Of a stretch of DNA of 64,000 nucleotides, positions 1-37,218 are shown in pieces (positions within the stretch are counted from its first letter, which is position 1; each line of letters starts with the position of its first letter). Origin of the DNA: a virus. Under the pieces are notes generated by a model. That model did no database searches. It was not told the DNA's origin and saw only the letters and a program-made list of their open reading frames with translations. A program made the translations under genes and the position numbers. The DNA lies in IMG/VR virus record IMGVR_UViG_3300008110_000030, positions 34,707 through 98,706 of that record; one strand, written 5' to 3'.

Positions 1-449
1 AATGTTACGGATCGAATGCATACAGGCTAGATGCATGGAATGGTGATCAAAATGGTCATAGCCACAGTATTGTGTTTGACACAAAGACACAAGAAGTTTA
101 TGAAGTTACATCTTACGATTATCGAAACAGTCGTGCATATCGTTTGTTGAATCCCAATTTTGTTAAAAAACATAAGAAAGAATCCAAACGTCGAGATGTT
201 AATTTTGATGAAGCATGGGACGAAGTTAACTATATTGATCTAGAAGTTGATGACGATTGGATTCAAAAAGCATTGTCAATTGAAGCTGGTGAAGTGGACT
301 ATGATACTCGTGTGTCAGTTCCTTTGACTCTAGATCGTGACCAAATGTATGAACTAATGAGTATGGCACATGAACGTGACATGACTTTAAATCAGTTGGT
401 TGAATTTGTTATTAGACAAGAAATTAAAAGGATTGAAAATGGACTATAA
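1..449 (+). CDS. hypothetical protein, probably 5'-partial (reading frame open to window start; ORF-track start at 72 is GTG without SD)
   Basis: No stop in this frame between position 3 and 449; stop overlaps groES start (ATGGACTATAA). Confidence 0.4.
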   Translation, partial: CYGSNAYRLDAWNGDQNGHSHSIVFDTKTQEVYEVTSYDYRNSRAYRLLNPNFVKKHKKESKRRDVNFDEAWDEVNYIDLEVDDDWIQKALSIEAGEVDYDTRVSVPLTLDRDQMYELMSMAHERDMTLNQLVEFVIRQEIKRIENGL

Positions 450-729
450 ACCAGGCGTTGGAAAAGTTGTAGTAAAATTAACGAATCCAGAAAAAACAAC
501 CGCTGGTGGACTTATACTTGCGGAGACTGCGGTTGACCAAACAAATCGAGGAACCGTAATGGCAGTGGGGAAAGGCAAGACGTCAGATGCAGGTGTGGTT
601 ATTGATATTCCTGTTAGTGTAAATGATGTAGTAATGTTCAGTACAGGTGCTGGAGTTGTGGTTGCCATTGACAGTGAAGAAATGCTAGTTCTTAGAGAAG
701 AAGATATCTTCGCTATTGTTGAGGAATAA
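439..729 (+). CDS. groES: co-chaperonin GroES (Cpn10)
   Basis: 96 aa; AGGA 7 nt upstream of ATG 439 (ORF-track start 400 is TTG); matches E. coli GroES motifs TAGG(I/L)xL, AVGxG, C-terminal EExLxLxExDIxAIVE. Confidence 0.85.
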   Translation: MDYKPGVGKVVVKLTNPEKTTAGGLILAETAVDQTNRGTVMAVGKGKTSDAGVVIDIPVSVNDVVMFSTGAGVVVAIDSEEMLVLREEDIFAIVEE

Positions 730-2574: not shown

Positions 2575-3615
2575 ATGGACTTTGTATTAAACGTTCTGTT
2601 AAAGAACATGTCATACCTATGGATGATATTCTTCATTATGATCACTGCTGGACTAGCTAAAGAGTACGCTCTTTTTGCCCCAGCATTTGCCTATGTAAGA
2701 AACACATTCCGTAGCAATAAGTTCGTAGTAGTTCTCCTAAGCGCAATTGGCGGAGTATTGCCAATTGAAGGTCGAGTCACTGTGTCAGCAGGTCTGCTTG
2801 ATACAGTAGCGCCAAAAGATGGACCAGGCCGTGAAAAGTTAGGTATTGTTGATTACTTGAGTACGCACCACTATTATTTGTGGAGCCCTCTTGAGAAAAC
2901 AGTAATCCTACCAATTGCGGCATTTGGTTTAACTTATGGTGCATGGCTTGGTCTGGTTGCACCGTTGTTGATTGTTAGTTTTGCTTTTATTACTTGGTAT
3001 ATATGGAGTCAAGTACATAACGAGCAAATAGTGATCACACCAGGAAACTTTAAACTATCATCAGTCTTACGCAATGTTATTCCAATGTTTGTGGCCATTG
3101 GTCTTTACATTTACAATGACAAGTGGATGGTTGGTTGTTTTGGTTTCCTAACCCTGTACTACATTATCATTAGCCAACAGTGGAACATTAAGAAATTATT
3201 AGGCTACGTTCGATGGGATGTATTGGCATGGGTTGGTGCAGTTATTATGCTAGGAAACTACATGAAAACTTATGATGCCGCATGGCAAACAATGCTAAAG
3301 ACAAGTGTGCTTGATCCGCATACTTTTGTTGGCATGGTTGCTATATCAGCAATTGGTTTCATAGCCAGCTTCTTAATGGGTAGTAGTGGAAAGTTTATAG
3401 CAATCGCTGTATTGATGTCTCAAGTCTTTGGAGTTGAGTATTTCTTATGGTTCTTTGCTATCGACTTTGCAGGCTATCTCATTAGCCCTACGCATAAGTG
3501 CGTTATGATTGGAAACAAATATTTTGGAACTCCAGTCGGCACTTATTATAAGGCATTAGGAGCATGGGGTGGATTAATGCTGATAACGGCAGGTTTGATT
3601 ACTTTTGTAATCTAA
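2575..3615 (+). CDS. polytopic integral membrane protein (about 8-10 predicted TM helices)
   Basis: 346 aa, many long hydrophobic stretches; TAAGGAGAAAAG SD before ATG. Confidence 0.6.
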   Translation: MDFVLNVLLKNMSYLWMIFFIMITAGLAKEYALFAPAFAYVRNTFRSNKFVVVLLSAIGGVLPIEGRVTVSAGLLDTVAPKDGPGREKLGIVDYLSTHHYYLWSPLEKTVILPIAAFGLTYGAWLGLVAPLLIVSFAFITWYIWSQVHNEQIVITPGNFKLSSVLRNVIPMFVAIGLYIYNDKWMVGCFGFLTLYYIIISQQWNIKKLLGYVRWDVLAWVGAVIMLGNYMKTYDAAWQTMLKTSVLDPHTFVGMVAISAIGFIASFLMGSSGKFIAIAVLMSQVFGVEYFLWFFAIDFAGYLISPTHKCVMIGNKYFGTPVGTYYKALGAWGGLMLITAGLITFVI

Positions 3616-3621
3616 GCATTA

Positions 3622-3645
3622 GAGGGGCTCAATGCCCCTCTTCTT
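3622..3645 (+). terminator. rho-independent terminator hairpin GAGGGGC-TCAAT-GCCCCTC followed by TTCTT
   Basis: perfect 7-bp GC-rich stem directly after stop of 2575-3615. Confidence 0.7.
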
Positions 3646-3726
3646 AACTAAAAATTATCGACTTGGTATAACCAGTCGCTTGAGAATCGGAAGACGGCTC
3701 TCAACTTAAATCTTAAAGGTGATTAT

Positions 3727-4620
3727 ATGAAACAAATAGCAATACTAGCTATACTGTTGGCTACCACGTCAATAGCTATGGCACAAAGTAGAGTTGGCAC
3801 CATAGCCGACGAAGCAGTTAAAGAAATGTCAGCAAAACAAAATCTTCCAGACCTGTCTGGAGAGTCGCAGACATTACCTCCCGTAACAGTTACAGCAGAA
3901 AAAATTGATCAATTTGATCGAGTTGGACCATACAATCAACCAGTGTGGACTACTGGTAGAATGTTTCCTAGTACTAGAACTTATGTTATGACCCCACCAG
4001 GGACAATGATGTACGAAAAATGGTTTGACTTTAGAAATAGACGTAATGGCCCAACCCAAATTCGTATGCGAGATGAGTTTGCGTTTGGTCTTGGAAATAG
4101 GTTAGAGTTAGACCTATATGCACACACAGTTTATGACGGCCCGTCAGAACAAAAAGAGTTCAATTGGCGAGGCTTTAGTTGGGAGATACGATATGCTCTA
4201 GCTGATTGGGGTAAAATTCCTGGTAACCCCACTTTGTACTTTGAGCACAAATTAATTAACGGTCGTCAAGGAATTGAACCTAAATTATTACTAGGAGATA
4301 GAATTGGGGAGACAGATTATATCTGGAGTGCAAACTTCATATATGAAGCCAATCTCGCCAAAGCTAATGCTGACAAAGAACGAGAGTACGCCGCTACATT
4401 TAGTTTAGGCAAGATTATTGATAATGATCTCATGCTTGGTTTCTCGTCTATGTATCGTTATCATAACTATGATCAAAACATTCAAGAGCTTTATGCTGGT
4501 CCCGTAGTAAATTGGCGGATCAATAAAAAGGCTAGACTTAGTTTTGAACACATGCCTAGATTAAGCGACGACGGATATAACGACAGCAGAAGTTTGTTTA
4601 TTTTTGGTTGGACTTTATAA
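3727..4620 (+). CDS. secreted protein, possibly outer-membrane beta-barrel-like
   Basis: N-terminal signal peptide MKQIAILAILLATTSIAMAQ; alternating amphipathic segments; aromatic-rich C-terminus FIFGWTL. Confidence 0.5.
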   Translation: MKQIAILAILLATTSIAMAQSRVGTIADEAVKEMSAKQNLPDLSGESQTLPPVTVTAEKIDQFDRVGPYNQPVWTTGRMFPSTRTYVMTPPGTMMYEKWFDFRNRRNGPTQIRMRDEFAFGLGNRLELDLYAHTVYDGPSEQKEFNWRGFSWEIRYALADWGKIPGNPTLYFEHKLINGRQGIEPKLLLGDRIGETDYIWSANFIYEANLAKANADKEREYAATFSLGKIIDNDLMLGFSSMYRYHNYDQNIQELYAGPVVNWRINKKARLSFEHMPRLSDDGYNDSRSLFIFGWTL

Positions 4621-4712
4621 AATTGTTTTGCTATTGACTTATGAAATAAATATCATTATAATAGCATATTATACACTATTCAGAGCATAGCTCTTATATT
4701 ATAAAGAAAGCA

Positions 4713-4747
4713 GTGGGGGCATTATTATTCAGCCCCCACTTTTATTA
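4713..4747 (+). terminator. rho-independent terminator AGTGGGGGC-loop-GCCCCCACT + TTTTATT
   Basis: 9-bp GC stem followed by T-tract downstream of 3727-4620. Confidence 0.75.
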
Positions 4748-4767
4748 GCACTGTGGCATTCTTGATG

Positions 4768-4775
4768 TATAAATA
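4768..4775 (+). promoter_or_regulatory. T4-type late-promoter-like motif TATAAATA upstream of dnaK
   Basis: exact TATAAATA 80 nt upstream of dnaK ATG, just after a terminator; motif alone is weak evidence in AT-rich DNA. Confidence 0.3.
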
Positions 4776-4855
4776 ATTATACACTGATGCACCTAATGGG
4801 CACAGTAAACGGGCAAAGCCCAAATATAAAGATCTTACTTTAAAAGGAGATAAAA

Positions 4856-6745
4856 ATGTCAAAGATCATCGGTATCGACCTCGGTACAACAAACTCATGC
4901 GTAGCCGTTATAGAAAACGGAATCCCCAAAGTTATTGAAAATAGTGAAGGTGCTAGAACTACACCCTCAATTGTTGCCTACGCCAACAATGAAATCTTAG
5001 TAGGTGCTACTGCAAAACGTCAAGCAGTAACAAATCCTAAAAATACAATCTATGCTAGTAAGCGTTTGATTGGACGTAAGTTTGAAGAACAAGCTGTACA
5101 AAAAGATATTGACCTAATGCCTTACAAAATTGTTCGAGCAGACAATGGTGATGCATGGATTGAAGCTAACAACGACAAACTTGCCCCACCACAGATTTCG
5201 GCAGAAGTACTCCGCAAGATGAAAAAAACTGCGGAAGACTATCTTGGAGAAACTGTAACACAGGCAGTTATTACAGTCCCAGCTTACTTTAACGACAGTC
5301 AACGTCAAGCAACAAAAGATGCAGGCAAAATTGCTGGCTTAGAAGTTCTACGTATTATTAATGAACCAACAGCGGCTGCACTTAGTTATGGTGTTGACAA
5401 AGCTGATAAAGCTGACAGGAAAATTGCTGTTTACGACCTTGGTGGTGGTACATTTGACGTAAGCATTATTGACATTGCTGATGTTGATGGTGACAAGCAA
5501 ATTGAAGTGTTATCAACCAACGGTGACACATTCTTAGGCGGTGAAGATTTTGACCAACGTATTATGGATTACTTGGTTGACGAATTTAAGAAAGAGCAAG
5601 GTGTTGATCTAAAGAAAGACATGTTGGCTCTACAACGTCTTAAAGAAGCAAGTGAAAAAGCTAAAATTGAATTATCAAGTTCAGCACAAACAGATGTTAA
5701 CTTGCCATACATTACAGCAGATGCAAGTGGTCCTAAACACATGGCAATTAAGTTGACTCGTGCTAAATTTGAATCAATGGTTGATGACCTAATTCAACGC
5801 AGTTTAGATCCATGCCGTCAAGCTATGAAAGATGCTAGTGTTACTGCCGCAGACATTGACGAAGTTATCTTGGTTGGTGGTCAAACACGTATGCCTAAGG
5901 TACAAGAAGAAGTTGAAAAACTTTTTGGTAAAGCTCCACGTCGTGATGTAAATCCGGACGAAGCTGTAGCAGTTGGTGCGGCAATTCAAGGTGCTGTTTT
6001 AGGTGGTGATCGTAAAGATGTTCTACTACTTGACGTTACTCCATTAAGTCTTGGTATTGAAACACTGGGCGGCGTAATGACCAAGATCATCCAGAAGAAT
6101 ACAACTATTCCTTCTAAAGGACAGCAAACATTCTCAACAGCTGAAGATAACCAGCCTGCGGTTACTATTAAAGTATTCCAAGGTGAGCGTGAACTTTGCC
6201 AGCATAATAAAATGTTGGGAGAGTTTAATCTTGAAGGCATTGCTCCAGCTCGTCGTGGTCAGCCACAGATTGAAGTTACCTTTGACATTGACGCTAACGG
6301 CATCATGAACATTAGTGCTAAGGACAAGTCAACTGGAAAAGAAAACAAGATTACTATCAAATCAGATAGCGGTCTTAGCAAAGAAGAAATTGAAAAAATG
6401 ATTCAAGAAGCTGAAGCAAATGCCGAAGCAGATAAAAAAGCACGTGAACTAATTGATTCTCGCAACAACGCAGAATCACAAGTACACTCTGTTAAGAAAG
6501 ACTTAACAGAGTATGGTAGTAAAATCACTGAAGATGACAAGTCTAAAATAGAAACTGCTATTAAAACTGTAGAAGATTCTATTAAGGGCGACGACACTGA
6601 AGTGATTACTAAATCAGTGACAGCATTGTTTGAAGCAATGACACCACTGATTCAAGCAAAGACTAGTACTGCTTCAGAAAGCAACAACAATAATCAAGAC
6701 GATGTTGTTGATGCTCAATACACTGAAACACCTAAGTCTGAATAA
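4856..6745 (+). CDS. dnaK: molecular chaperone DnaK (Hsp70)
   Basis: 629 aa; canonical Hsp70 motifs [33 protein letters not shown]; AAAGGAGAT SD. Confidence 0.95.
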
Positions 6746-6793
6746 GGCACCGTTAAGGGCCTAATTTGATTCTTACTTTAAAAGGAGATTATC

Positions 6794-7228
6794 ATGAATC
6801 AACTAAGAACTATAGATGCAGATACACTAACAAAAGCTCTAATTGGATTTGACACAATGTTTGACCAATTTGAACGTAGGTTTTCTAATTCAATGAGTAA
6901 TACATATCCTCCTCATAATGTTATCAAAATTGATGACAACAATTATGAGATTCAAGTGGCTGTAACTGGTTTTGGAAAAGATGATGTTACTGTTGAACTT
7001 GATCAGAACGTGTTAATTGTGACTGCTGGTAGAGATGTTGTTGAAGATGAAAAAACATATCTACACCGTGGACTTGCACAACGCAATTTTGTTCGCAACT
7101 TCCCACTTGCTGAGCATATTGAGGTTAAAGGTGCAGAACAAAAGAACGGCATCTTGTCTATTAGACTAGAGCGCATTGTTCCAGAAGCACTCAAGCCACG
7201 TCGAATTAACGTCACGTATTCAGAGTAA
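6794..7228 (+). CDS. ibpA: small heat-shock protein, IbpA/IbpB (Hsp20) family
   Basis: 144 aa; near-collinear with E. coli IbpA (YPPxNV, RTYLxxGxAxRNFxRxFxLAExIxVxGA, ERxxPEAxKPRRI). Confidence 0.9.
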   Translation: MNQLRTIDADTLTKALIGFDTMFDQFERRFSNSMSNTYPPHNVIKIDDNNYEIQVAVTGFGKDDVTVELDQNVLIVTAGRDVVEDEKTYLHRGLAQRNFVRNFPLAEHIEVKGAEQKNGILSIRLERIVPEALKPRRINVTYSE

Positions 7229-7233
7229 TTGGC

Positions 7234-7263
7234 AAAGGGGCCACTTGTGCCCCTTTGTTATTT
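7234..7263 (+). terminator. rho-independent terminator AAAGGGGC-CACTTGT-GCCCCTTT + GTTATTT
   Basis: 8-bp stem immediately after ibpA-like stop. Confidence 0.7.
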
Positions 7264-7300
7264 GTAGTATAATAAGTAAAAATAATATTTAGGAACTTAA

Positions 7301-7603
7301 ATGGGTGAAATTGCTACCAAACAAAAAAGTCTAGTAACTACAGATCTAATTGAACCTAGAAAGTTCAAAGTGATTTTCTTTAATGATGATAAAACTCCAA
7401 TGGATTTTGTTATAGATTTGTTGATTAATTTATTCAATCATGACCAAACTAGTAGCAGTAAACTAACAATGGAAATTCACAATGAAGGGTCAGCAGTAGT
7501 TGGGATTTACCCTTATGAAATCGCCGAGCAAAAAGGAATTGAATCCACACACATTGCTCGTCAAGCAGGCTACCCATTATTGATTAAAGTTGAATCGGAG
7601 TAA
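7301..7603 (+). CDS. clpS: ATP-dependent Clp protease adaptor ClpS
   Basis: 100 aa; FKVIFFNDDKTPMDFVIDLL matches ClpS core [20 protein letters not shown]; C-terminal HPLL-like YPLLIKVE. Confidence 0.85.
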   Translation: MGEIATKQKSLVTTDLIEPRKFKVIFFNDDKTPMDFVIDLLINLFNHDQTSSSKLTMEIHNEGSAVVGIYPYEIAEQKGIESTHIARQAGYPLLIKVESE

Positions 7604-7605
7604 CG

Positions 7606-8151
7606 ATGAGTTTACGAGAAATTACTAAAGATTTACATCACGAAGCAGAAATAACAAAATTTGCCAAGTTATTGCTAAGTGGAAAAATTGAAAAATCTGA
7701 TTATAAGAATTATCTATATAATCTAATGGCAGTATACGATCCAATCGAGTGGTACTGCAAACGTCAAGGTTTCCTTGACACAATGCCTACACTGCCAAGA
7801 CTACATGCTATCCATGCAGACTTTGTAGAATTAGATGATGGCACATATTGTTATCTAACGCCAGCGGCTTTAGAATATCAAGCATACTTACATAAACTAG
7901 GCAATGATCCAGAACGTAAACATTTGGTTAAGGCGCATTTATATTGCCGCCATATGGGCGACCTATTCGGTGGTCAAATCATTAAGAAACAAGTAGCACA
8001 CATTTCAAGTGGTAAATTTTACGACTTTGAAAATGCTGATGCTATGAAGATGTCTATTCGAGAAACACTCACAGATGATCTAGGAGATGAAGCTCGTGTG
8101 GCATTTGAATTTGCTATTAAGATGATGCGTGACTTATATGCAGGAGAGTAA
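7606..8151 (+). CDS. heme oxygenase (HO-1/HemO family)
   Basis: 181 aa; N-terminal LxExTKDLHHEAE...F (proximal His region) and LYxxYxxxE pattern of heme oxygenases; GGAG SD. Confidence 0.8.
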   Translation: MSLREITKDLHHEAEITKFAKLLLSGKIEKSDYKNYLYNLMAVYDPIEWYCKRQGFLDTMPTLPRLHAIHADFVELDDGTYCYLTPAALEYQAYLHKLGNDPERKHLVKAHLYCRHMGDLFGGQIIKKQVAHISSGKFYDFENADAMKMSIRETLTDDLGDEARVAFEFAIKMMRDLYAGE

Positions 8152-8827
8152 AGTATGGGACACACTAATTGAGATCCAAGCTCTACTTGAGGAGTCGTTT
8201 GAAAAAACAGGAGTCGAAGTATTCGAACCTGGAATGGATCGTTTTAATCAACCTGGTTGGGTTAATCGTGTATGGTCTAGTGATAAGTATCGCCGGGCCC
8301 ACGTTGATGTCGTTGATGCTAGGCTGACCAAAGGTCTTTGGATGATGCACTGTTGCATCTTCCCTCATACACACAATCCAGCACCAATTTACGGCTTTGA
8401 TGTTATTGCTGGTAAGAACAAAATTACTGGTTGTTTCCACGACTATAGTCCTGCTGGCGACAAAAATCATCCTATGATAGAATGGTTTGGTCAAGAAGTT
8501 AGCAAGTTAGAGTGGCGCAGAGAACGAGCACTTCCTGATTGGGCTCAGCGTATTTTTACCAAGCACATGGTGGCGGCAGGCAATGTTCAAGATGAAACTG
8601 AGTTACAACAAATTACAGATCTTGCTAAAACTACAGTAGAACACTATCTCAGTACTGTTGCAGAAACTAATAATACAGTGCCTGATACTACATTTGAGCA
8701 AGACTACTACGCACAAAATCAAAAACAAAACCCACATACTCCTAGAGTTATGGTTAGTTTAGGGCTTTCAGAGGACGATGTCAAGCATTTCATACAAGAA
8801 TGTCTATTTCCCGAAATTGGTAAATAA
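8129..8827 (+). CDS. ferredoxin-dependent bilin reductase (PcyA/PebS/PcyX family)
   Basis: 232 aa directly after heme oxygenase; LWMMHCCIFPHTHNPAPIYGFDVIAG...DYSP parallels PcyA LDILHCVMFPEPxYGLPLFGCDIVAG...DLSP; start ambiguous (8129 or 8138). Confidence 0.7.
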   Translation: MTYMQESKVWDTLIEIQALLEESFEKTGVEVFEPGMDRFNQPGWVNRVWSSDKYRRAHVDVVDARLTKGLWMMHCCIFPHTHNPAPIYGFDVIAGKNKITGCFHDYSPAGDKNHPMIEWFGQEVSKLEWRRERALPDWAQRIFTKHMVAAGNVQDETELQQITDLAKTTVEHYLSTVAETNNTVPDTTFEQDYYAQNQKQNPHTPRVMVSLGLSEDDVKHFIQECLFPEIGK

Positions 8828-8833
8828 TACATT

Positions 8834-10609
8834 ATGCGTTTAGATGAATTTCAATTAGCAGGGCAAATGCCCTCCAATATACAAAGAGCTGTTCCTGTAA
8901 CAGCTCAACCTTCTCAACCAGCAGTTGGTTCAGCTGGCGGTAACTCTTTAGAAGATAGCTTGGTAAAATTCGTTGATAAGGCTGACGATTTTCCAGATGA
9001 CTCACCTGTTCATGCTTATGTAAACAGCGTACTTAAAACAATTTTATCTTACATTCCAGATATTACGATACGTGAGAATTCAGCAACAAATCAATCATCT
9101 TTAGATGACACTAATCGTTCGTTATTGGAAGACCTCTTTCCTTATCTATCACAACTTAGTGAAGATTCTAGAAATACCCTTAAGGACTCGATTGACGGTG
9201 CAATACTTACATTAGAGCAAAAACAAAAACTTAGCGGTGAACTTTATAAGATTAAGGGTGCTAAAAAAGCCTTTACTAAACAGAATGTAACAATTCAATT
9301 AGACACCAAAGGCAACATTGCAAAGATGGATGCTGATATTGAAGCAACTGCTAGACAATTTGCCAAAGACTTTAAACTACCATTAAAATGGGCACGTAAC
9401 TTAATTGGCATGTTTGAGGTCAATATCACTAGAGAACAAAGAAAAGAATTCTTAATAGCCTGTAGAGCTGGTACTGCGCTTGATGTTGGTAAAATGATCA
9501 ATGACGGCGAAGGTCGTGTTGAAGACTATGTTTTGTTAGAACAGCCAGAACTTAAGGAAGTTTATAACAGTGTTAAAGACACGCTCCTAGACATCAGTTT
9601 AAGTACAGGTCAACGCGGAGCAACTGGTCCATTTGAAGCCATGATGGCCATCATGGGCGGATGTAAAAAACCTGGTATAAACGAGGGTGGTGATTTAAAG
9701 TATAAAGATTTAAAACTTGAAGTTAAAGCAACCTCAATTAGTGCTGTAACTGAATCTGCTACAGCAGGTAAAGCTAATTCTGCTTGGTTAGATTCTACAG
9801 CAGGTAAAGAAATATCAGGATCAACACTGAGAAGTGTGGCAAATGATTGGTTAGATAATTATGCTACAGAAGCAAGAACAAACAAAGCATTCCAAGATTC
9901 TTGGAAGAAAGCTGATTTCAGACCAGCAGGTCTTGAAAGTTTAAAACAGTGTTTAGTTGATCTTAGAAGTGTAGAAGGAGTTCCTGTTGCTCCAGCTAAG
10001 AAATTAATCAAATATATGATGGGAACTATGTTTCCAAGTATAGTGAAATTACAAAATGAAGGTTATGATTTTGACGCATCTTGTATGAGAATACTAACTG
10101 CAATTGGTAAGTTAGATACAAGCTCTATTGCTAAAGAACAAGGAGTTATGGCTTTATTAGAATATATAACTGGAAAAGGAAATGACGGTTTTGTATTCTT
10201 TAATCCATCAACTCAGAAATTCAAAATTGTTATGGGAGTAAAAGGTGTACTAGAAGAACTCAAATCAAAAAACGGTTCCAACCTACATTTTGATAGTACC
10301 ATGACCATGGGTAAGTCTGCAAAAGCCAGTCCAGGAATATATTATGGTGCAAAACCAAACTCGCCCGAAGGTATAGAATATCTAAAGAAATTTAATTCAA
10401 GTCCAGAACGTGTAGCTCAATTAAAACAAATAGAAGCAGATAAAGCAGCCGCAAGAGAAAATAAATCATTAGCCATGATTCAAGCCGCCAAAGAAGGCGA
10501 GTCAGAATTTGAATTTGATGGTAAAATGTATGCTGTTTCTAAAGCCGCTTTAAAGAAGTATTTTGAGCCTGACATGCCAATCTCCAGAACCAAAAAGAAA
10601 ACCCGTTAA
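8834..10609 (+). CDS. hypothetical protein (591 aa)
   Basis: long ORF, co-directional, no recognisable motifs. Confidence 0.55.
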   Translation: MRLDEFQLAGQMPSNIQRAVPVTAQPSQPAVGSAGGNSLEDSLVKFVDKADDFPDDSPVHAYVNSVLKTILSYIPDITIRENSATNQSSLDDTNRSLLEDLFPYLSQLSEDSRNTLKDSIDGAILTLEQKQKLSGELYKIKGAKKAFTKQNVTIQLDTKGNIAKMDADIEATARQFAKDFKLPLKWARNLIGMFEVNITREQRKEFLIACRAGTALDVGKMINDGEGRVEDYVLLEQPELKEVYNSVKDTLLDISLSTGQRGATGPFEAMMAIMGGCKKPGINEGGDLKYKDLKLEVKATSISAVTESATAGKANSAWLDSTAGKEISGSTLRSVANDWLDNYATEARTNKAFQDSWKKADFRPAGLESLKQCLVDLRSVEGVPVAPAKKLIKYMMGTMFPSIVKLQNEGYDFDASCMRILTAIGKLDTSSIAKEQGVMALLEYITGKGNDGFVFFNPSTQKFKIVMGVKGVLEELKSKNGSNLHFDSTMTMGKSAKASPGIYYGAKPNSPEGIEYLKKFNSSPERVAQLKQIEADKAAARENKSLAMIQAAKEGESEFEFDGKMYAVSKAALKKYFEPDMPISRTKKKTR

Positions 10610-10684
10610 GTATTAATTTACTAAGCATTTAATTTATCGCTCTACTACCGTTAAATAATAATGACGGTAATCGGAGAGCGAGCA

Positions 10685-11230
10685 ATGAAAAAACAAATGT
10701 ATGCCTTTATGCTATTGGCATGGGTAAGTGCTATTCATTCGGCACCATTGAATGACTTTCAATTTAAAAGTCCTGCATTCAATGGAGTTGGTTATAGTTC
10801 ACATGTACTAACCATAGAAAATCAAGAACGTACACGTCAAAACGAACGTGCAGATAAACTACAGGCTGAAATTGACAAAGCAATTTCAGATAAGAAAAAC
10901 ACGAATCTTGCTAAGTTTGTTAGTAACTTAGAATCGCGTATCTACGCACAGATTAGCCAAAACGTAGCAACTGCTATGTTTGCCAATAATAATTGTACAG
11001 CAAGTAGCAACACAAACTGTTCAGGGAATATTGATTTCCAAGGAAACTATATTAGTTGGAGCAAGGTATTAAGCTCTGATGATTCAAACTGTTCTACAGC
11101 ATATGGTTCTTGCATCATGTTGAGAATAGCAGATCCTACAGCAACGAACCCAACAACAGCACCTTGTAATTCTGATGGTGTATCTTGTATCTATGTGCCA
11201 CTAAGTTCATTCCAAATGCCAGGGAATTAA
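10685..11230 (+). CDS. csgF: curli assembly protein CsgF-like
   Basis: signal peptide; mature N-terminus FQFKSPAFNGV matches CsgF FQFRNPNFGGN; immediately precedes csgG; GGAGAG SD (ORF-track start 10661 is upstream alternative). Confidence 0.6.
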   Translation: MKKQMYAFMLLAWVSAIHSAPLNDFQFKSPAFNGVGYSSHVLTIENQERTRQNERADKLQAEIDKAISDKKNTNLAKFVSNLESRIYAQISQNVATAMFANNNCTASSNTNCSGNIDFQGNYISWSKVLSSDDSNCSTAYGSCIMLRIADPTATNPTTAPCNSDGVSCIYVPLSSFQMPGN

Positions 11231-11233
11231 CCC

Positions 11234-12484
11234 ATGAAAAAGACTATTATATCTTTGGCAATCGTAAGTATGCTTTCTGGCTGTGCAATTTTGCAGTCAA
11301 CAGGAGAGTTTGATAAAACTCCAGAACTGACTACTCAGATGAAAGGTGTTAAGAAAGAGTTTGACACCATTCCAAGTCCATCAGCTGGTAGACCATTAAG
11401 TGTTGCTGTATACAGTTTTACTGATAAAACGGGTCAACGTAGACCACAGGCTAATATTGCCAGTTTAAGTTCAGCAGTTACACAAGGCGCAGAATCTTTT
11501 CTAATTCAAGCACTACAAAATGTAGGTCAAGGACAATGGTTTGATGTTGTAGAAAGAGTAGGCATTGATAACCTGACTAAAGAACGATTAATTATTCGCC
11601 AGATGCGTGAAGCATACGAAGGTAAAGATGCTAAACCATTACTACCAATGCAGTTTGCAGGCATTATTATTGAAGGCGGCATTGTAGGCTATGACTCTAG
11701 CACAACTAGTGGTGGTGTTGGACAACGTATTTTTGGTATTGGAAAACAAACACAATGGTCCACTGATAGGGTTACCGTAAGTTTACGAGCAGTTAGCGTA
11801 AACACTGGCAAAGTATTAGCCACAGTGACTACTCAAAAGACTATAATGAGTTCAGCAGACAGTGTGTCTGCATTAAAATTCTTTGATGCTGGAACACAGG
11901 CGTTTGAAGCTGAGGCAGGTTTAACCATAAACGAGCCAGGTACATACGCTGTAAAGGCAACAATTGAAATGGCAGTAGTTGAATTAATTAAAGAAGGACA
12001 ACGCAAGGGAGTATGGGATTACAAGACAGTGGTTAAAGAATCACCACCTGTATCAATCGCACCACCCCCACAGGCAGCTCCAGTGATTAGCAGTGAAGTA
12101 AGACAGAAAGAAGAAATTAAAGTAGAGGAGAAGAAAGATGTCGTGGTTCAATCACAAACCCAATCCGAAACGAAAACAGAAGCCGCACCCAGTGCCTCCA
12201 CAGAAGTAAAAAAAGAGACACTTAAGGACGGTGCAGAACTAAAAGTAACAGCAATGCAAACTGGGGTAAAACCAACAATAGATCTTTTTGGTGCTAGGTA
12301 TTTAAAAGAAGATTCATTTGTATATAAAGAAGCAAACGAAAAAAGTCAGCGAACTTGGCTATTAAAGAAAGGCACTGAATTATACATTATTACTCCAGGA
12401 CCAGAAGGTTGGCACCAAGTAAGAGACGCAGAGAAGCGTAAAGGTTTTGTCAAGAATTCAGTACTCGGAACTGACAAACCATAA
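11234..12484 (+). CDS. csgG: curli production assembly/transport lipoprotein CsgG with C-terminal Pro/Lys/Glu-rich linker and SH3-like extension
   Basis: lipobox LSGCA; collinear with E. coli CsgG (VAVYSFTDKTGQ, IIEGGIVGYDSSTTSGGVGQRIFGIGKQTQ, LRAVSVNTGKVL); about 140 extra C-terminal aa. Confidence 0.9.
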   Translation: MKKTIISLAIVSMLSGCAILQSTGEFDKTPELTTQMKGVKKEFDTIPSPSAGRPLSVAVYSFTDKTGQRRPQANIASLSSAVTQGAESFLIQALQNVGQGQWFDVVERVGIDNLTKERLIIRQMREAYEGKDAKPLLPMQFAGIIIEGGIVGYDSSTTSGGVGQRIFGIGKQTQWSTDRVTVSLRAVSVNTGKVLATVTTQKTIMSSADSVSALKFFDAGTQAFEAEAGLTINEPGTYAVKATIEMAVVELIKEGQRKGVWDYKTVVKESPPVSIAPPPQAAPVISSEVRQKEEIKVEEKKDVVVQSQTQSETKTEAAPSASTEVKKETLKDGAELKVTAMQTGVKPTIDLFGARYLKEDSFVYKEANEKSQRTWLLKKGTELYIITPGPEGWHQVRDAEKRKGFVKNSVLGTDKP

Positions 12485-12582
12485 AGATAGCGAGTACGGA
12501 GGAACGTAGAGGTAAACTTAATTTAATGGCCGTAGGCCAAGGAGCGTGGTTGGAGAATATATAATCCAATCGTGTATAAAAG

Positions 12583-13557
12583 ATGGACAAAAGAAACAAA
12601 GGCGTTGGTAAGTTGTCGAGAAAATTACTTACAATTCTGGTGTTGTCTGGAATGGCAACATTGGGTCATGCGGCTGATAACAGCATCTACATTGATCAAG
12701 CAGGTGACAACAGCACAATTACTATGACACAAGATGGTGCTGGTAATAAAGTAAAAGGCATTTTGTCAAGCGGTGTTGCTGGAGGTACTACAGATCCTGC
12801 TAAACTTACTGGCAATGCTCAAACAGTTAACATTGAGCAAACTGGTGCAACCAACGTCTTGGCATTGGGAGTTAATTCAACGCAAGGTGGTTTAGTACAA
12901 GGATATGCTAACATAGGTGTGAATTTAAACTATCAAGTAAGTGGTGGTGGAAACACTGGTTATATTAACATTAATAACAATGGTCAAGGAACTGCAATTG
13001 GTAATGTGGTCAGTATTATACAAAGTGGTGGCGGTGGAACAGCAACACTTAACATGACTGGAACTAGTAATCAATTGACTGTTGGTCAGAGTGGTGGTGC
13101 TAACAATACATTTATAGGCACAATCAATGCTGACGAAACTGTAGCAACTGTAAGTAACACACTAGGTGGTGGTAATACTACAACATTAGACATGACTGGA
13201 AATAAAGGTCAAGTTAGTGTTACAACAACAGGCACTACAAATACAACAAGCGTGACACAAAGCGCATTTGGATCAACTGGTGCGCAAGTACTAGTTAACA
13301 TTGATGGTTCAGGCAATAATACAACTGTTACACAAAGTGGTATGTATGATCACTATGCTAGTCTAAGTGTAGTTGGCAGTGGTAATAACTTTACAATAGC
13401 ACAGTCTGGTGGTTCTGCAACTGGACATTCTGCTACATTGTCTGTAACTGGAAGTACAAACACTGTTGGTATCACACAGCAAGGATCAGTTGCCAATCTA
13501 ACCAACATGGCAGTAAATGGTAGTAATAATACATACACTATACTACAGAAAAATTAA
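12583..13557 (+). CDS. secreted curlin-repeat protein (CsgA/CsgB-like amyloid subunit)
   Basis: signal peptide; many imperfect repeats of type N-x-T-V-x-Q-x-G-x-x-N (for example NQLTVGQSGGANN, NTTVTQSGMYDH, NFTIAQSGGSATGHSATLSVTGSTNTVGITQQGSVAN). Confidence 0.7.
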   Translation: MDKRNKGVGKLSRKLLTILVLSGMATLGHAADNSIYIDQAGDNSTITMTQDGAGNKVKGILSSGVAGGTTDPAKLTGNAQTVNIEQTGATNVLALGVNSTQGGLVQGYANIGVNLNYQVSGGGNTGYININNNGQGTAIGNVVSIIQSGGGGTATLNMTGTSNQLTVGQSGGANNTFIGTINADETVATVSNTLGGGNTTTLDMTGNKGQVSVTTTGTTNTTSVTQSAFGSTGAQVLVNIDGSGNNTTVTQSGMYDHYASLSVVGSGNNFTIAQSGGSATGHSATLSVTGSTNTVGITQQGSVANLTNMAVNGSNNTYTILQKN

Positions 13558-13566
13558 GAGGTTGGA

Positions 13567-14673
13567 ATGAACGTATGGCTAGCAATATTACTTGTTTCGT
13601 TACTGCACACATCAAATGCTCAAGCGGCAATTGGTAAAGTAACGGAACAGGTAAACATACCTCCTACAATTCAACGAGATAAATCAACCCTAACTGGCAG
13701 CAAAGGTACAGGTGTTGAGATGAATGACTCAATTAAAACTTCTCAAGGCAAAGTGGGCATTACCTTTGAAGATGATACCCGTGTACAAGTAAACGAAAAC
13801 AGTAAACTGGTTATTGATGACTTTGTTTATGATCCAAAAACCAAAGCAGGTAAACTAGGTGCTAAGATTGCACTAGGTACTGTACGCTATGCTAGTGGAC
13901 AGATTGCTAAGAATAGTCCACAGAGTGTAAACCTTAATACACCTAGTGCTACTGTAGCAGTTCGTGGTACGGACTTTACAGCCACAGTAGACGAACTTGG
14001 TGAGAGTACAATTATTCTACTACCTAGTTGTCCTAACGATAGACCTACACGTACAGTAAAAGACATTGAAGCAAGTTGTAAAACTGGTGTAATTGAAGTC
14101 AGCAATGACGTGGGCACTGTAATATTAAATCAACCGTTCCAAGTAACTAAAGTACAGAGCAGAACACAACCTCCTACTCCACCTAAAACACTGGAGTTAT
14201 CTGAAATGGCTATCAGTAACTTGATAATTTTGAGTCCTCCAAAAGAAGTTAAGCAAGCTCAAGAAGAACAGCGTAAAGTGTTTAATCCTTTAGACATAGA
14301 TTTTCTAAAAGAAAAAGGATTAGAGAACTGGCTTGATATGCAAGCTGGAGTTATCTACGAAGACAAACTAAAGAAAAACTTTTTGGATAACGATTTCCTA
14401 GCCAGCTTATTTGACATTATTGGTAATCAATTGGATCAAAAATTCTTAGACCCAGTAGATCCTGTACTACCTGACTACAAGAGAGCTACTGGTATCGTTG
14501 CCTACAAAGATGATACGAGTATTGAATTGTGTAGAGATAGTGGTGCTGACATACAGTGTGTTAAAACTCCTTTAACACAGAACAGTACAATCTTCCAAAC
14601 ACAAGGTAGTTTAGAGTTTAAGAATCGTGTTAATCAAGGCGGTAATACTATCATTACCTTAATACAAAGATGA
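13567..14673 (+). CDS. secreted FecR-domain protein
   Basis: signal peptide; TPSATVAVRGTDFTATV matches FecR-domain core (x-V-x-V-RGT-x-F); sits between the two curlin-like genes. Confidence 0.5.
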   Translation: MNVWLAILLVSLLHTSNAQAAIGKVTEQVNIPPTIQRDKSTLTGSKGTGVEMNDSIKTSQGKVGITFEDDTRVQVNENSKLVIDDFVYDPKTKAGKLGAKIALGTVRYASGQIAKNSPQSVNLNTPSATVAVRGTDFTATVDELGESTIILLPSCPNDRPTRTVKDIEASCKTGVIEVSNDVGTVILNQPFQVTKVQSRTQPPTPPKTLELSEMAISNLIILSPPKEVKQAQEEQRKVFNPLDIDFLKEKGLENWLDMQAGVIYEDKLKKNFLDNDFLASLFDIIGNQLDQKFLDPVDPVLPDYKRATGIVAYKDDTSIELCRDSGADIQCVKTPLTQNSTIFQTQGSLEFKNRVNQGGNTIITLIQR

Positions 14674-16628: not shown

Positions 16629-16715
16629 AATTTACCTTAAAGTTATGGTCTCACCTCTTTGTCCATGCACCGGATACTGTTGTATCGTGTTGACGGCACA
16701 TAAAACCAACACCAG

Positions 16716-17300
16716 TTGGTTAGTTACTCCCCAAAGATATTTAGTAAATACAATATGCGAGCAAAAGAATTCATTATAGAAGCAGAAGCTAGCGATGCTG
16801 AGTTAACGCAACGTTACGGCAAGTTTGAACCCGAAGATAAACCAATGTTACCAACCACAAGAGTTGGTGGTGCGCCTTCCCCAACTTTATGGACAGCCTA
16901 CGAAGTAATTCGAAATATTTTAGGCAAAGATAAAGTTACAGACGACGATGATGAATTAGCTCCTGGAATGTACTATGTGTATCAAAGCTTAGGCTCTCCT
17001 ATGTTTAAAGACACAGGTGATGGAGTAGGTAGTATCAATCTTCCCAACTTAGATAGTACTAGTGCTCGAGATGTTGCCATGGCTGCTCACGAAGCATACC
17101 ATGCTTATGTACACAATAAAAGTCTTGGCGGAGTTGCTTATGCCAATGAAAAGATTATTAACAAACTAGCAGAAAAGTGGTTGAGAAATCACTTGTCAGG
17201 ACCAGCATTACACACTGCACTAGAAAAAATAGTGGGCAGTAGAATCAGTTATGGTCCAAACCATATGCCTAACAGTTCAACAATAGATAAAAGAAAATGA
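16716..17300 (+). CDS. hypothetical protein
   Basis: ORF-track start is TTG; first ATG at 16755; no recognisable motifs. Confidence 0.45.
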   Translation: MVSYSPKIFSKYNMRAKEFIIEAEASDAELTQRYGKFEPEDKPMLPTTRVGGAPSPTLWTAYEVIRNILGKDKVTDDDDELAPGMYYVYQSLGSPMFKDTGDGVGSINLPNLDSTSARDVAMAAHEAYHAYVHNKSLGGVAYANEKIINKLAEKWLRNHLSGPALHTALEKIVGSRISYGPNHMPNSSTIDKRK

Positions 17301-37208: not shown

Positions 37209-37218
37209 AGGAAACAAA

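Follow-up and report, generated by a model that had tools for sequence, protein, structure and literature searches.

The phage from which this DNA derives carries a genuine proteostasis gene set of its own, and the set is larger than a first-pass annotation of the same sequence had stated. The window (the whole 64-kb stretch analysed here) is part of the genome, about 215 kb long, of a T4-like jumbo phage that is uncultured and probably lives in fresh water. The rIIA product encoded in the window (phrog_612, E=4e-130) is only about 30% identical to that of the nearest cultured relative, and the phage therefore belongs to a separate, uncultured lineage. As its coding sequences show, the phage encodes a canonical DnaK, a class-B J-protein with an HPD motif, an IbpA-like small heat-shock protein (sHSP), GroES, a gp31-family co-chaperonin, ClpX, ClpA, ClpP and ClpS. 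Six chaperone and protease genes lie at or very near the positions that the first-pass annotation had assigned to them, with profile-search statistics far beyond chance; the HMM annotation that it had proposed gave matches to the DnaK, HSP20, ClpS, Cpn10 and CLP_protease profiles. The genes concerned are listed here.

439 to 729, plus strand: groES-like co-chaperonin, 96 aa (Pfam Cpn10, E=1e-22; phrog_3188, 'co-chaperonin GroES')
4856 to 6745, plus strand: dnaK, canonical Hsp70, 629 aa (Pfam HSP70, E=2e-260; NCBIfam DnaK equivalogs)
6794 to 7228, plus strand: hsp20, IbpA-like sHSP, 144 aa (Pfam HSP20, PF00011, E=2e-18, 66.7 bits vs 20.8)
7301 to 7603, plus strand: clpS, N-degron adaptor for ClpA, 100 aa (Pfam ClpS, PF02617, E=4e-25)
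7606 to 8151, plus strand: heme oxygenase, starting 3 nt past the clpS stop (Pfam Heme_oxygenase, E=3e-22)
8129 to 8827, plus strand: ferredoxin-dependent bilin reductase, overlapping the heme oxygenase gene (Pfam Fe_bilin_red, E=2e-14)
37192 to 37839 (alternative start 37219), plus strand: clpP, proteolytic subunit (Pfam CLP_protease, E=9e-65)
63656 to 64000, cut by the window end, plus strand: divergent Cpn10 of the gp31 family (Pfam Cpn10, E=2e-6; phrog_931, 'head morphogenesis', E=1e-11)
L088:4487-5707, about 3.3-4.5 kb upstream, just outside the window: clpX, ATPase motifs intact
L086:19383-20225, 9-12 kb downstream, just outside the window: dnaJ-like gene, HPD motif intact
L093:1189-3471, 9-12 kb downstream, just outside the window: clpA, full-length, 760 aa, with Clp_N and two AAA modules

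The dnaK product passed both NCBIfam DnaK equivalog cut-offs (NF001413, 999 bits against 648; TIGR02350, 924 against 823), so that the earlier claim of a complete phage DnaK at 4856-6745 stands. Identity with the paralogue HscA was rejected, since both HscA models failed (618 bits against 620, and 608 against 709). Alignment with residues 1-595 of E. coli DnaK required a single one-residue gap. In E. coli numbering, the ATPase residues D8, K70, E171, D194, T199 and D201, the J-domain site R167/N170/T173, the linker VLLLD and the pocket residues A429 and V436 are all kept, while M404 is replaced by Leu. The sHSP has the C-terminal I-x-V motif (RRINV, in the protein end ...KPRRINVTYSE) and falls in phrog_432, a phage Hsp20 family. 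IbpA was its best NCBIfam model, with 2-136 of 137 positions aligned, but the score of 131.5 bits is below the cut-off of 212. The earlier label of an IbpA-type sHSP thus holds for the alpha-crystallin domain, the I-x-V motif and the best model, and fails at the equivalog level; 'IbpA-like sHSP' is a name that the sequence makes defensible. In ClpS (PF02617, 87.9 bits against a gathering score of 23; best NCBIfam equivalog 82 against a cut-off of 149, not reached), the residues N34-D35-D36, T38, M40 and H66 of E. coli ClpS are kept and M62, which lines the N-degron pocket, is replaced by Thr. In E. coli ClpS, N34, D35, T38, M40, M62 and H66 are the residues that bind the alpha-amino group and the side chain of the substrate. 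The residues that contact the ClpA N domain, E79 and K84, are also kept, and a phage ClpA is available as partner. With dN/dS values of 0.028 for dnaK (against L001), 0.05 for hsp20 and 0.016 for clpS, that is 0.016-0.05 at dS 0.3-0.7, the three cassette genes are under strong purifying selection.

The two distinct Cpn10-like co-chaperonins reported earlier at the window ends were both recovered. GroES was the best NCBIfam match of the first (85 bits against a cut-off of 120), which is also a 96-aa gene call on JGI contigs; the full gp31-family gene, completed from L086:10304-10666, encodes 120 aa and would end at about 64018. Both predicted proteins have the Cpn10 signature and a hydrophobic mobile-loop tripeptide, within GGLIL in the former and TGIVL in the latter. 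In ClpP, the Ser (GQACSMGS), His (MIHR) and Asp (FDTFLSA) aligned with the E. coli catalytic triad, in agreement with the intact triad claimed before. The match to E. coli ClpP has E=1e-61, and those to solved ClpP structures 1e-61 to 4e-65; NF001368 was passed (256 bits against 249), TIGR00493 was not reached (243 against 309), and 10-12 aa are inserted after the catalytic His.

Of the partner genes for which a search had been proposed, clpX and a dnaJ-like gene lie outside the window. ClpX, found upstream, has a Zn finger, Walker A, GYVG and the IGF docking loop (...HTGIGFNS...). ClpA, assigned through a contig (L093) whose DnaJ is 100% identical, has Walker A/B twice, GYVG and an IGF docking loop (...SNIGFGSQ...). 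The two IGF loops would make both of them cognate unfoldases of the phage ClpP. Targeted degradation 'via ClpS and ClpP', as first suggested, needs to be modified accordingly: ClpS works through ClpA, not through ClpP directly, and the phage encodes its own ClpA. The dnaJ-like gene was found downstream and encodes a class B J-protein, which has no Zn-finger domain. One IMG/VR contig of 245.5 kb has clpX, dnaK-hsp20-clpS, dnaJ and clpA together. For groEL the answer was partial, groES-groEL being located in or beside the cassette in some relatives (L003, L005, L049 and L050). GrpE was searched for as well: grpE was absent from about 94 kb of this phage genome of about 215 kb, and no match to E. 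coli GrpE was obtained in 189 phage loci (3.4 Mb), while 77 of 80 cellular loci, used as the positive control, gave one. Five IMG/VR contigs matched a GrpE profile, and none of them is of this lineage. A complete phage-encoded DnaK-DnaJ-GrpE system was thus not seen in these 94 kb, and the DnaK cycle would therefore depend on a host factor. ClpB was not found in this phage either. The sHSP, ClpS, GroES, ClpA and the DnaJ-like protein do not reach their NCBIfam equivalog cut-offs, and altered specificity is therefore possible for these five.

A simple possibility is that host DNA was mis-assembled or mis-binned into a viral contig. The DnaK is 66-76% identical to those of Burkholderiales and other proteobacteria, and several GenBank 'phage' records with a closer-looking DnaK are probably contaminated. 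However, no GC discontinuity, by which contamination was to be recognised, occurs at the flanks, where GC is flat at 0.37-0.39 (about 0.38). The window moreover contains rIIA, fibre-like and gp31-family genes, which mark it as viral. Relatives of this DnaK were found on at least 572 IMG/VR viral contigs, and in 73 of the best 80 loci dnaK, hsp20 and clpS follow in the same order, on dozens of independent contigs from many samples, so that the suggested comparison with related phages revealed a core cassette kept in many of them. In two relatives (L074 and L040) clpP is 2.8-7.4 kb from clpS. The nearest 80 cellular DnaKs, from Beta- and Gammaproteobacteria, are separated from the phage DnaKs in 100 of 100 NJ bootstraps, so that the phage DnaK genes form one viral clade. 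All 80 cellular genes lie in a grpE-dnaK-dnaJ type context and none is accompanied by hsp20-clpS; the phage loci never have grpE, and they have a phage-type promoter motif and leader before dnaK. Host contamination is thereby effectively refuted, and we regard its probability as practically nil. DnaK is indeed uncommon, as stated earlier, among deposited phage genomes, with matches in only 43 of 50,697 records, but in this uncultured lineage it is not. The top matches among the deposited records were unannotated fragments or records that also have host genes such as hscA, and are therefore probably host DNA.

We then consider the signals around dnaK and hsp20, which are listed below.

4634 to 4662, plus strand: sigma-70-like promoter TTGACT-17-TATAAT, intergenic, upstream of dnaK (11 of 12 consensus matches, as a pattern match only)
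4768 to 4775, plus strand: TATAAATA, motif resembling a T4 late promoter, 81-88 nt 5' of the dnaK start codon
4783 to 4821, plus strand: two stem-loops in the dnaK 5' leader, at about 4783-4806 and 4811-4821 (MFE -16 kcal/mol, z=-4.7)
4834 to 4851, plus strand: 18-nt leader CTTACTTTAAAAGGAGAT, copy 1, containing the dnaK Shine-Dalgarno (exact repeat)
6772 to 6789, plus strand: 18-nt leader CTTACTTTAAAAGGAGAT, copy 2, before hsp20 (exact repeat)
7230 to 7260, plus strand: GC-rich hairpin followed by a T-rich tail, 3' of hsp20 (12-bp stem, 6 GC pairs)

The sigma-70-like site is the best one within 3500-9000. The motif TATAAATA occurs once in the window, where 6.3 copies are expected. Its core ATAAATA occurs nine times on the plus strand, each copy just upstream of a gene start, and once on the minus strand, and it is invariant in all 56 distinct dnaK upstream regions of relatives. 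These features, namely an upstream, strand-specific and conserved motif of the TATAAATA type, suggest a T4-type late −10 element at dnaK. The window also contains fibre-like giant ORFs at 45675-61938 (proteins of 1100-2850 aa), yet only this one perfect TATAAATA; the true late consensus may therefore be looser, NATAAATA or other. In 55 of 56 relatives the equivalent leader segment also folds at z<-2, with stems that differ in sequence. The 18-mer CTTACTTTAAAAGGAGAT has just two copies in the window even when three mismatches are allowed (0.19 expected), and CTT(A/G)CTT...AAGGAG is kept across relatives in the dnaK leader. Hence dnaK and hsp20 have an identical and, by prediction, strong ribosome-binding leader. 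Folding of the giant fibre proteins and targeted degradation, the uses first suggested, are putative; of the features seen, only the late-promoter-like motif and the strong ribosome-binding sites hint at a function while virion proteins are being synthesised. The hairpin 3' of hsp20 is a candidate terminator, attenuator or 3' stabiliser, and a GC-rich hairpin of different sequence is found at this position in nearly all of 61 distinct relatives. The invariant ATAAATA, the hairpin conserved in the leader and the ribosome-binding leader present in two copies are concrete regulatory elements open to test.

In 32 of 51 relatives the heme oxygenase start is found within 15 nt of the clpS stop, and bilin reductase follows heme oxygenase in about 60 of the best 80 loci. 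From this arrangement the cassette looks like two expression units, dnaK-hsp20 with the late-type motif, the common leader and the 3' hairpin, and a translationally coupled clpS-heme oxygenase-bilin reductase. The gene order dnaK, sHSP, clpS given by the first-pass annotation is correct; the hairpin after hsp20 and the tight coupling of clpS to heme oxygenase suggest that the 'one module' is partly an accident of that order.

On balance, we think it reasonably probable that the phage brings its own protein-quality-control machinery to infection, in the following way. The dnaK-hsp20 unit would be transcribed from the T4-type late promoter (ATAAATA), and possibly also from the early sigma-70-like promoter; the 5' hairpin would stabilise the transcript, and the unusually strong, identical ribosome-binding leaders would promote its translation. 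High levels of DnaK/J and sHSP would thus coincide with the synthesis of capsid, tail and fibre proteins, clients that they would hold and refold, with nucleotide exchange (GrpE) and disaggregation (ClpB) borrowed from the host, while GroES and the gp31-family protein would re-tool host GroEL. ClpS, expressed with heme oxygenase and bilin reductase and not with dnaK, would dock on the N domain of phage ClpA and direct ClpAP to proteins with N-terminal Phe, Leu, Trp or Tyr; ClpXP would handle degron-tagged proteins. Together these would give the phage control over the removal and recycling of host or phage proteins.

Control of the host response, and not help with folding, is another conceivable role. 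Since proteobacterial DnaK and DnaJ capture sigma-32 and pass it on to FtsH, DnaK and J-protein made by the phage would switch off, or change the timing of, the heat-shock response evoked in the host by the massive synthesis of phage proteins, with ClpXP and ClpAPS removing host regulators. The kept J-domain site and substrate pocket of DnaK, the phage's own J-protein and the sigma-70-like, possibly early, promoter before dnaK are consistent with this, and phage interference with the DnaK/sigma-32 circuit has a precedent in T4-related RB43, whose J-domain protein is described as stabilising sigma-32 (Perrody 2012, as cited in PMC12619734). However, it is the late-type motif, and not the sigma-70-like site, that is invariant in front of dnaK, and the co-expression of a holdase sHSP and the co-location of groES-groEL in relatives fit folding better, so that control of the host response seems unlikely. 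Another use of the same genes would be resource mining, in which ClpXP and ClpAPS mainly degrade host proteins to amino acids, clpS-heme oxygenase-bilin reductase frees heme iron for the phage Fe-S genes, and DnaK and IbpA keep unfolded intermediates soluble. Two full unfoldase-protease pairs are encoded, the window has sufC, sufD, iscS/sufS, iscU and iscA for Fe-S assembly, and the clpS stop abuts or overlaps the heme oxygenase start while the hairpin parts clpS from hsp20. This support is purely contextual, however; the heme oxygenase-bilin reductase pair also occurs in pmoC-phages described without mention of ClpS, and ClpS restricts rather than broadens the substrate choice of ClpAP. We accordingly consider this reading quite unlikely.

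The chaperones might also serve to keep a phage curlin-repeat protein from cytoplasmic aggregation before export. A curlin-repeat gene with csgF and csgG lies 5-6 kb downstream of the cassette, csgF-csgG-curlin-FecR follows it in about 30-35 of the best 80 loci, and inhibition of CsgA polymerisation has been reported for E. coli DnaK. The combination of DnaK, curli and S21 recurs in Lake Baikal viral scaffolds (PMC7678222). Against this, several relatives have the cassette and no detectable curli genes nearby, mention of DnaK or Clp was not found for the pelagimyophages that have curli genes, and ClpS, ClpA, ClpX and two co-chaperonins are left unexplained; handling of the amyloid protein is hardly credible as the reason for the cassette. 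As regards ClpP, its best PHROG matches are 'head maturation protease' families (phrog_94, E=3e-44) and the next gene (37881-38960) resembles virion structural proteins, so that it might be a prohead protease and not the partner of ClpX, ClpA and ClpS. This seems very unlikely in view of the end-to-end alignment with cellular ClpP including the N-terminal region, the passed cellular NCBIfam model, the 87 bits obtained with the ClpP-related head-maturation model against its cut-off of 120, and the two phage unfoldases with IGF loops.

Turning back to phage-borne protein quality control, a bolder version, to which we give little credence, would have two purpose-built viral circuits in place of a general chaperone supplement: the late-promoter dnaK-sHSP unit with its structured leader, shared across the lineage, and a clpS-heme oxygenase-bilin reductase unit linking N-degron proteolysis by phage ClpAP to heme breakdown and iron release for phage Fe-S assembly. 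If true, this would be a virus-encoded link of targeted proteolysis to tetrapyrrole and iron metabolism, within an almost host-independent proteostasis network long maintained in one of the more widespread jumbo-phage lineages of fresh water. In any case, uncultured aquatic phages of a large and apparently common group have retained an Hsp70 of bacterial type as a viral gene passed on vertically, alongside an sHSP, two co-chaperonins, a J-protein and both Clp unfoldase-protease systems with ClpS. The lineage is a good natural system for asking why bacterial viruses invest in proteostasis, candidate reasons being help in folding giant proteins of the virion, infection of hosts that grow slowly or live in cold water and have few chaperones to spare, and selective proteolysis.

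The phage DnaK forms a viral clade of its own and shares at most 76% identity with the 80 nearest cellular homologues, which makes it a poor host marker. This carries a practical warning, since DnaK identity has been used for host assignment of what is very likely this lineage. Lake Baikal VP_1254 (Coutinho et al. 2020, PMC7678222) comprises scaffolds of about 17 kb with DnaK, curli-production genes and ribosomal protein S21, in which DnaK served only as a host marker pointing to Methyloglobulus. Here S21, dnaK and csgF/csgG lie in this order within about 16 kb, so that VP_1254 very probably represents this lineage and this locus. The nearest cellular DnaKs, from Burkholderiales and other Beta/Gammaproteobacteria, weaken that assignment; that account did not describe the cassette, its Clp partners or the grouping of the phage DnaKs in a viral clade, which are reported here. 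The 'Moraphages' (Arch Virol 2025, PMC12619734) are large freshwater phages in which the presence of DnaK, DnaJ and HSP20 was stressed as unusual. Their DnaK occurs in only 8 of 25 genomes and nests in Flavobacteriaceae; no mention of ClpS or ClpP was found in the text of that study. The DnaK of the present lineage is in contrast nearest to Beta/Gammaproteobacteria, and the two are independent acquisitions.

The phage proteins agree with E. coli DnaK-DnaJ-GrpE/IbpAB and ClpAPS in domain architecture and in the key residues that were compared, and the sHSP is most similar to IbpA. Unlike the E. coli paradigm, the J-protein is without a zinc finger, the ClpP handle has an insertion, and the cellular grpE-dnaK-dnaJ type order is replaced by dnaK-hsp20-clpS, from which dnaJ is separated by about 66 kb and beside which grpE was not found. 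T4 gp31 has its counterpart in the gp31-family gene. Like this phage, Agrobacterium phage Atu_ph07 and its Rak2-like relatives, Pseudomonas PA5oct, Sinorhizobium Phosso and Salicola SCTP-2 are large myophages with ClpS, which is 30-41% identical to that of the window (tblastn). Atu_ph07 has ClpX, ClpA, ClpB, ClpP and DnaJ in addition to ClpS (PMC6102473), and thus encodes the ClpB not found here; DnaK is mentioned once in that text, in the reference list, and not for a phage gene. For these cultured phages no conserved dnaK-hsp20-clpS cassette is described, whereas this phage has one. Pairs of heme oxygenase and a PcyX-like bilin reductase are known in large freshwater phages, and pelagimyophages carry curli genes, S21 and peptide deformylase. 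With the cyanophage and pelagimyophage auxiliary sets this phage shares hsp20, heme oxygenase and bilin reductase, curli csgF/G and S21, in a larger genome of about 215 kb; no mention of DnaK, ClpA, ClpS or ClpX was found in the papers considered here on the cyanophage, pelagimyophage and heme oxygenase-bilin reductase phage groups. All the proteostasis components are thus already known from other large phages, and the present lineage is a new, unusually complete and widespread example.

The dnaK gene, hsp20 (encoding an IbpA-like small heat-shock protein, sHSP) and clpS were found as consecutive ORFs with Pfam support, and groES, clpP and a second Cpn10-like gene were also found by Pfam. All of these genes are present where the first-pass annotation had placed them, and its observation is therefore confirmed. 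The genes are as follows.

439-729, + strand: groES-like Cpn10 (Pfam E=1e-22)
4856-6745, + strand: dnaK, 629 aa (Pfam HSP70 E=2e-260)
6794-7228, + strand: hsp20, 144 aa (Pfam HSP20 E=2e-18)
7301-7603, + strand: clpS, 100 aa (Pfam ClpS E=4e-25)
37192-37839 (alternative start 37219), + strand: clpP (Pfam E=9e-65)
63656 to beyond the window end, + strand: gp31-family Cpn10 relative (Pfam Cpn10 E=2e-6, a weaker match)

The gp31-family gene is incomplete at the window end and encodes 120 aa on contigs of the same phage. Its product was assigned to PHROG 931 'head morphogenesis', which is the annotation that would be expected for a T4 gp31-type co-chaperonin. Each proteostasis component is already represented by a PHROG family; ten other small window ORFs compared with Pfam gave nothing relevant. 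HscA was considered as the identity of the Hsp70 because Fe-S genes in the window suggested it, and was rejected, since the NCBIfam HscA models stayed below their cut-offs and the DnaK models passed.

The first-pass annotation had considered that these genes might be host contamination, marked by a coverage or GC discontinuity at the flanks. GC is even, at 0.32-0.42 over the window and 0.37-0.39 across 4-8 kb, and nearly all window genes lie on the + strand. Phage-type genes include an rIIA homologue at 28515-30686 (phrog_612, E=4e-130) and very large fibre-like ORFs at 45675-61938 with PHROG matches to tail-fibre and virion proteins. Megablast of 4856-7603 against GenBank phages gave no match; deposited phage genomes do not include this lineage. 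A DnaK protein scan found a relative encoded by at least 572 IMG/VR stretches (572 of 600 candidates listed). The best 80 loci lie on viral contigs, the longest of 383 kb. Their DnaK is 76-97% identical, and tblastn with the window proteins showed that the order and orientation dnaK-hsp20-clpS (the cassette) are conserved in 73. In the remaining seven dnaK alone was detected, with the contig ending about 10 nt or less from dnaK in two of them.

The nearest 80 cellular DnaKs among 185,579 reference genomes, by contrast, belong to Burkholderiales and other Beta- and Gammaproteobacteria (66-76% identity); there dnaJ adjoins dnaK in 76 loci, grpE is present in 77, and hsp20 or clpS adjoins dnaK in none of the 80. 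When 68 distinct phage and 80 cellular DnaKs were compared by neighbour-joining over 597 columns, the phage proteins formed a single bipartition in 100 of 100 bootstraps. The dN/dS ratio was taken against the closest relative (L001) only, because synonymous sites are saturated in more distant ones, and was 0.028 for dnaK, 0.050 for hsp20 and 0.016 for clpS (dS 0.3-0.7). Taken together, the phage-type window genes, the synteny on viral contigs, the cellular contrast, the DnaK bipartition and dN/dS exclude host contamination. They also indicate a single old acquisition followed by inheritance within the viral lineage under strong purifying selection. Six JGI contigs, from several samples, carry the window DnaK sequence unchanged. 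The different start points of two assemblies (214,617 and 214,702 bp) suggest that the genome, of about 215 kb, is circularly permuted. One NCBI contig (L090; GCA_031545195.1, JAVQHV010088881.1) has in common with the window, at 5059-12737, IMPDH...groES...DUF401 and the gene preceding dnaK. At the expected dnaK site it carries a thioredoxin-reductase-like gene, GmrSD and Uma2 on the opposite strand; the contig is a chimeric assembly or else a variant without the cassette.

Partner genes were found beyond the window. On contigs carrying exactly the window's proteins, clpX lies upstream of the window, some 3.3-4.5 kb from its start. Its 406-aa product exceeds the cut-offs of both NCBIfam ClpX equivalog models and has a CxxC...CxxC zinc finger, Walker A (GPTGCGKT), GYVG in the pore loop and IGF in the docking loop. 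A dnaJ-like gene (280 aa) lies about 9 kb past the window end and is followed by peptide deformylase; in its product the HPD motif is intact, a stretch rich in Gly and Phe and a DnaJ C-terminal domain are present, and the zinc-finger domain is absent. Directly after the deformylase gene comes clpA (760 aa), seen on a contig with a DnaJ 100% identical to that of this phage (L093) and on a 245.5-kb relative (L092). ClpA aligns with E. coli ClpA over residues 3-746 at about 43% identity, and covers 3-733 of the 734 positions of TIGR02639 with 878 bits, under the cut-off of 993. It contains a Clp_N domain, Walker A and B in both AAA modules, GYVG and the IGF loop; the ClpB-like tblastn matches were the clpA gene in every case. 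The E. coli tblastn queries proved adequate, as judged by strong full-length matches and a positive control. On contigs of the same phage, ribosomal protein S21 directly follows clpX (L088, 5691-5939) and peptide deformylase stands between the dnaJ-like gene and clpA (L086, from 20234), so that genes of translation and maturation stand in between those of proteostasis.

As to the chaperonin and exchange-factor partners also raised in the first-pass annotation, groEL was found in relatives: it adjoins groES, inside or beside the cassette, in four of them (dnaK-groES-groEL-hsp20-clpS in one locus, L005), and is absent from the sequence covered for this phage. In two other relatives clpP is 2.8-7.4 kb from clpS. 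No grpE was detected by tblastn in 189 phage loci (3.4 Mb), the same query having matched 77 of 80 cellular loci as the positive control, and a GrpE-profile scan of all IMG/VR gave five contigs only, none of this lineage. Among those five is a different large phage with the order hsp20-dnaK-grpE-dnaJ (L273, 1-2000, in IMG/VR 3300026521_000471, 224 kb; L274, 4100-9200, in 3300026512_000571). About 1.3 kb of inserted sequence, possibly an intein or mobile element, interrupts its dnaK match.

The encoded proteins were aligned computationally with their E. coli counterparts, and residues are given with the E. coli numbering and roles. DnaK aligns with residues 1-595 of E. coli DnaK with only one gap, one residue long, and retains the residues for catalysis and phosphate binding, the site that contacts the J domain, the VLLLD linker and the residues of the substrate pocket; position M404 is Leu. 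In ClpS the N-degron pocket residues N34, D35, D36, T38, M40 and H66 are retained, M62 is Thr, and E79 and K84, which contact ClpA, are retained. The Ser-His-Asp triad attributed to ClpP in the first-pass annotation is indeed intact. Directly after the catalytic His, ClpP has a 10-12-residue insertion in the handle region, which is the ring-ring interface, and it reads IHR where cellular ClpPs have IHQP. The sHSP is closest to IbpA in a near full-length alignment, under the equivalog cut-off, and ends with an I-x-V motif. Both Cpn10 proteins retain the hydrophobic mobile-loop tripeptide.

Two promoter-like elements are present in the 235-nt spacer upstream of dnaK.

4634-4662, + strand: near-consensus sigma-70-type promoter (pattern match)
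4768-4775, + strand: late-promoter-like octamer TATAAATA, once in the window against 6.3 expected

The octamer is the T4 late-promoter consensus. Between the two elements there is a GC hairpin with a T run, which probably terminates the gene upstream of dnaK. The ORF in this position (3727-4620) encodes a 297-aa secreted protein with no family match, 95% identical in L001. The ATAAATA core has nine + strand copies in the window and one on the - strand; every + copy lies at most 210 nt upstream of a gene start or within the last 40 nt of the preceding gene, and among the genes with such a copy are a fibre gene, a virion-protein-like gene, sufC, iscU and DUF401. ATAAATA is invariant in 56 of 56 distinct aligned dnaK upstream regions and is followed 3' by one or two stem-loops, of which the fold is kept and the sequence varies between relatives. 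Owing to gaps in the MAFFT alignment of the dnaK leaders, RNAalifold gave no consensus structure; folding each sequence singly, with shuffles, gave z<-2 in 55 of 56 relatives. The leader (4761-4855, and its equivalents in L001-L080, the best 80 loci) has a bulged hairpin with a CC...GG(G) apex and often a UUCG-like loop, then a conserved CTT(A/G)CTT and AAGGAG. It is a candidate for a cis-regulatory or stabilising RNA element specific to the lineage. An ATAAATA motif, a leader hairpin and an AAGGAG site are also present at the DUF401 membrane protein gene (2575-3615).

An 18-mer, CTTACTTTAAAAGGAGAT, is identical before dnaK and before hsp20, with no other copy in the window at up to 3 mismatches; a full AAGGAG Shine-Dalgarno precedes six window genes only. 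The 18-mer resembles the T7 gene 10 translational leader, and looks more like a strong translation-initiation leader than an RNA thermometer. A thermometer before dnaK or hsp20 was not supported, as Rfam at gathering thresholds gave only tRNAs, and at dnaK the Shine-Dalgarno is unpaired in the predicted leader fold. Directly 3' of hsp20 is a GC-rich hairpin (7230-7260), likewise present in nearly all relatives, and the clpS stop codon is at most 15 nt from the start of the heme oxygenase (HO) gene in 32 of 51 relatives. Because of this hairpin, the clpS-HO proximity and the dnaK/hsp20 leader signals, the row of three genes, correct in its order, is read as two putative units, dnaK-hsp20 and clpS-HO-bilin reductase. 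The overlapping HO and ferredoxin-dependent bilin reductase (PcyX/PebS-like) genes directly follow clpS at 7606-8827, and the pair stands 3' of the cassette in about 60 of the best 80 loci; the nearest relatives of the phage by DnaK are proteobacteria that do not photosynthesise.

Further along the window are a curli-type operon at 10661-14673 (csgF, csgG, a curlin-repeat protein and a FecR-domain protein), with csgF-csgG-curlin-FecR after the cassette in about 30 of the best 80 loci, and five consecutive Fe-S assembly genes at 42004-45339 (sufC-like ABC ATPase, sufD, class-V aminotransferase (iscS/sufS), iscU and iscA), ATAAATA preceding both sufC and iscU. The auxiliary genes also include, at 15939-19635, a TerC-family membrane protein (- strand) and a CHASE2-sensor adenylate/guanylate cyclase (680 aa), membrane and signalling genes of a sort unusual in phages. 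At 62816-63331 a 171-aa ORF matches nothing but part of the DNA polymerase III alpha NTPase domain (phrog_11127, E=6e-45), and may be a polymerase gene that is split or present as a fragment. There are three tRNA genes and a fourth, tRNA-like match by Rfam only.

21113: tRNA-Arg(TCT)
23986-24083: tRNA-like sequence, 98 nt (Rfam 38.7 bits; no ARAGORN call), adjoining the tRNA-Leu(TAA) pair
24093 and 24240: tRNA-Leu(TAA), two genes

The comparisons show that the phage has its own DnaK, J-protein, sHSP, two co-chaperonins, ClpXP, and ClpAP with ClpS, and that their genes are conserved and constrained. The purpose first suggested for the set, remodelling of host protein quality control, is plausible but unproven. 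Under late gene expression DnaK and sHSP would be produced in quantity, and with host GrpE they might hold and fold virion proteins, including the products of 1139-2853 aa. The co-chaperonins would redirect host GroEL, like T4 gp31; ClpS would shift phage ClpAP to N-degron substrates, and ClpXP could take other tagged proteins.

Other roles can be considered for the same genes. That the phage chaperones shut off the host heat-shock response via sigma-32 seems to us rather unlikely. The closeness of clpS to HO brings to mind resource or iron mining through this unit, a reading of which we are quite doubtful. Slight, too, is the chance that ClpS/ClpAP proteolysis, heme breakdown and Fe-S assembly are functionally coupled, and that the viral Hsp70 is under a late regulation specific to the lineage. 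The curli-type operon lies downstream of the cassette, and it is highly improbable that the chaperones serve to handle the phage's curlin-like protein. It is also unlikely that ClpP is a prohead protease. Quality control with virion-protein folding is the preferred, if unproven, purpose.

ClpS genes are found in cultured jumbo phages, e.g. PA5oct, Atu_ph07, Phosso and SCTP-2. For Atu_ph07, ClpX, ClpA, ClpB, ClpP, ClpS and DnaJ were reported (PMC6102473), and ClpX, ClpA, ClpP, ClpS and DnaJ are encoded here too. In 'moraphages' DnaK, DnaJ and HSP20 were highlighted, with DnaK from Flavobacteriales (PMC12619734); megaphage DnaK relatives show 49-59% identity. The Lake Baikal VP_1254 scaffolds of about 17 kb carry DnaK, curli genes and S21, the DnaK having served solely for host prediction, Methyloglobulus (PMC7678222). 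This content agrees with the S21...dnaK...csgG span of about 16 kb in our phage, and VP_1254 very likely belongs to the same lineage. Papers on pmoC-phages, Shemin-pathway phages and pelagimyophages describe HO/bilin-reductase, curli, S21 and deformylase genes, with DnaK and Clp unmentioned, and a literature search outside subscription journals found no published description of the conserved cassette dnaK-hsp20-clpS or of its leader. The observation is genuine, and the genes exceed what could be seen from the window alone. The set is unusually complete and very widespread, though no new type of system: auxiliary genes for chaperones and proteases are already known from large phages, and this set belongs among them.
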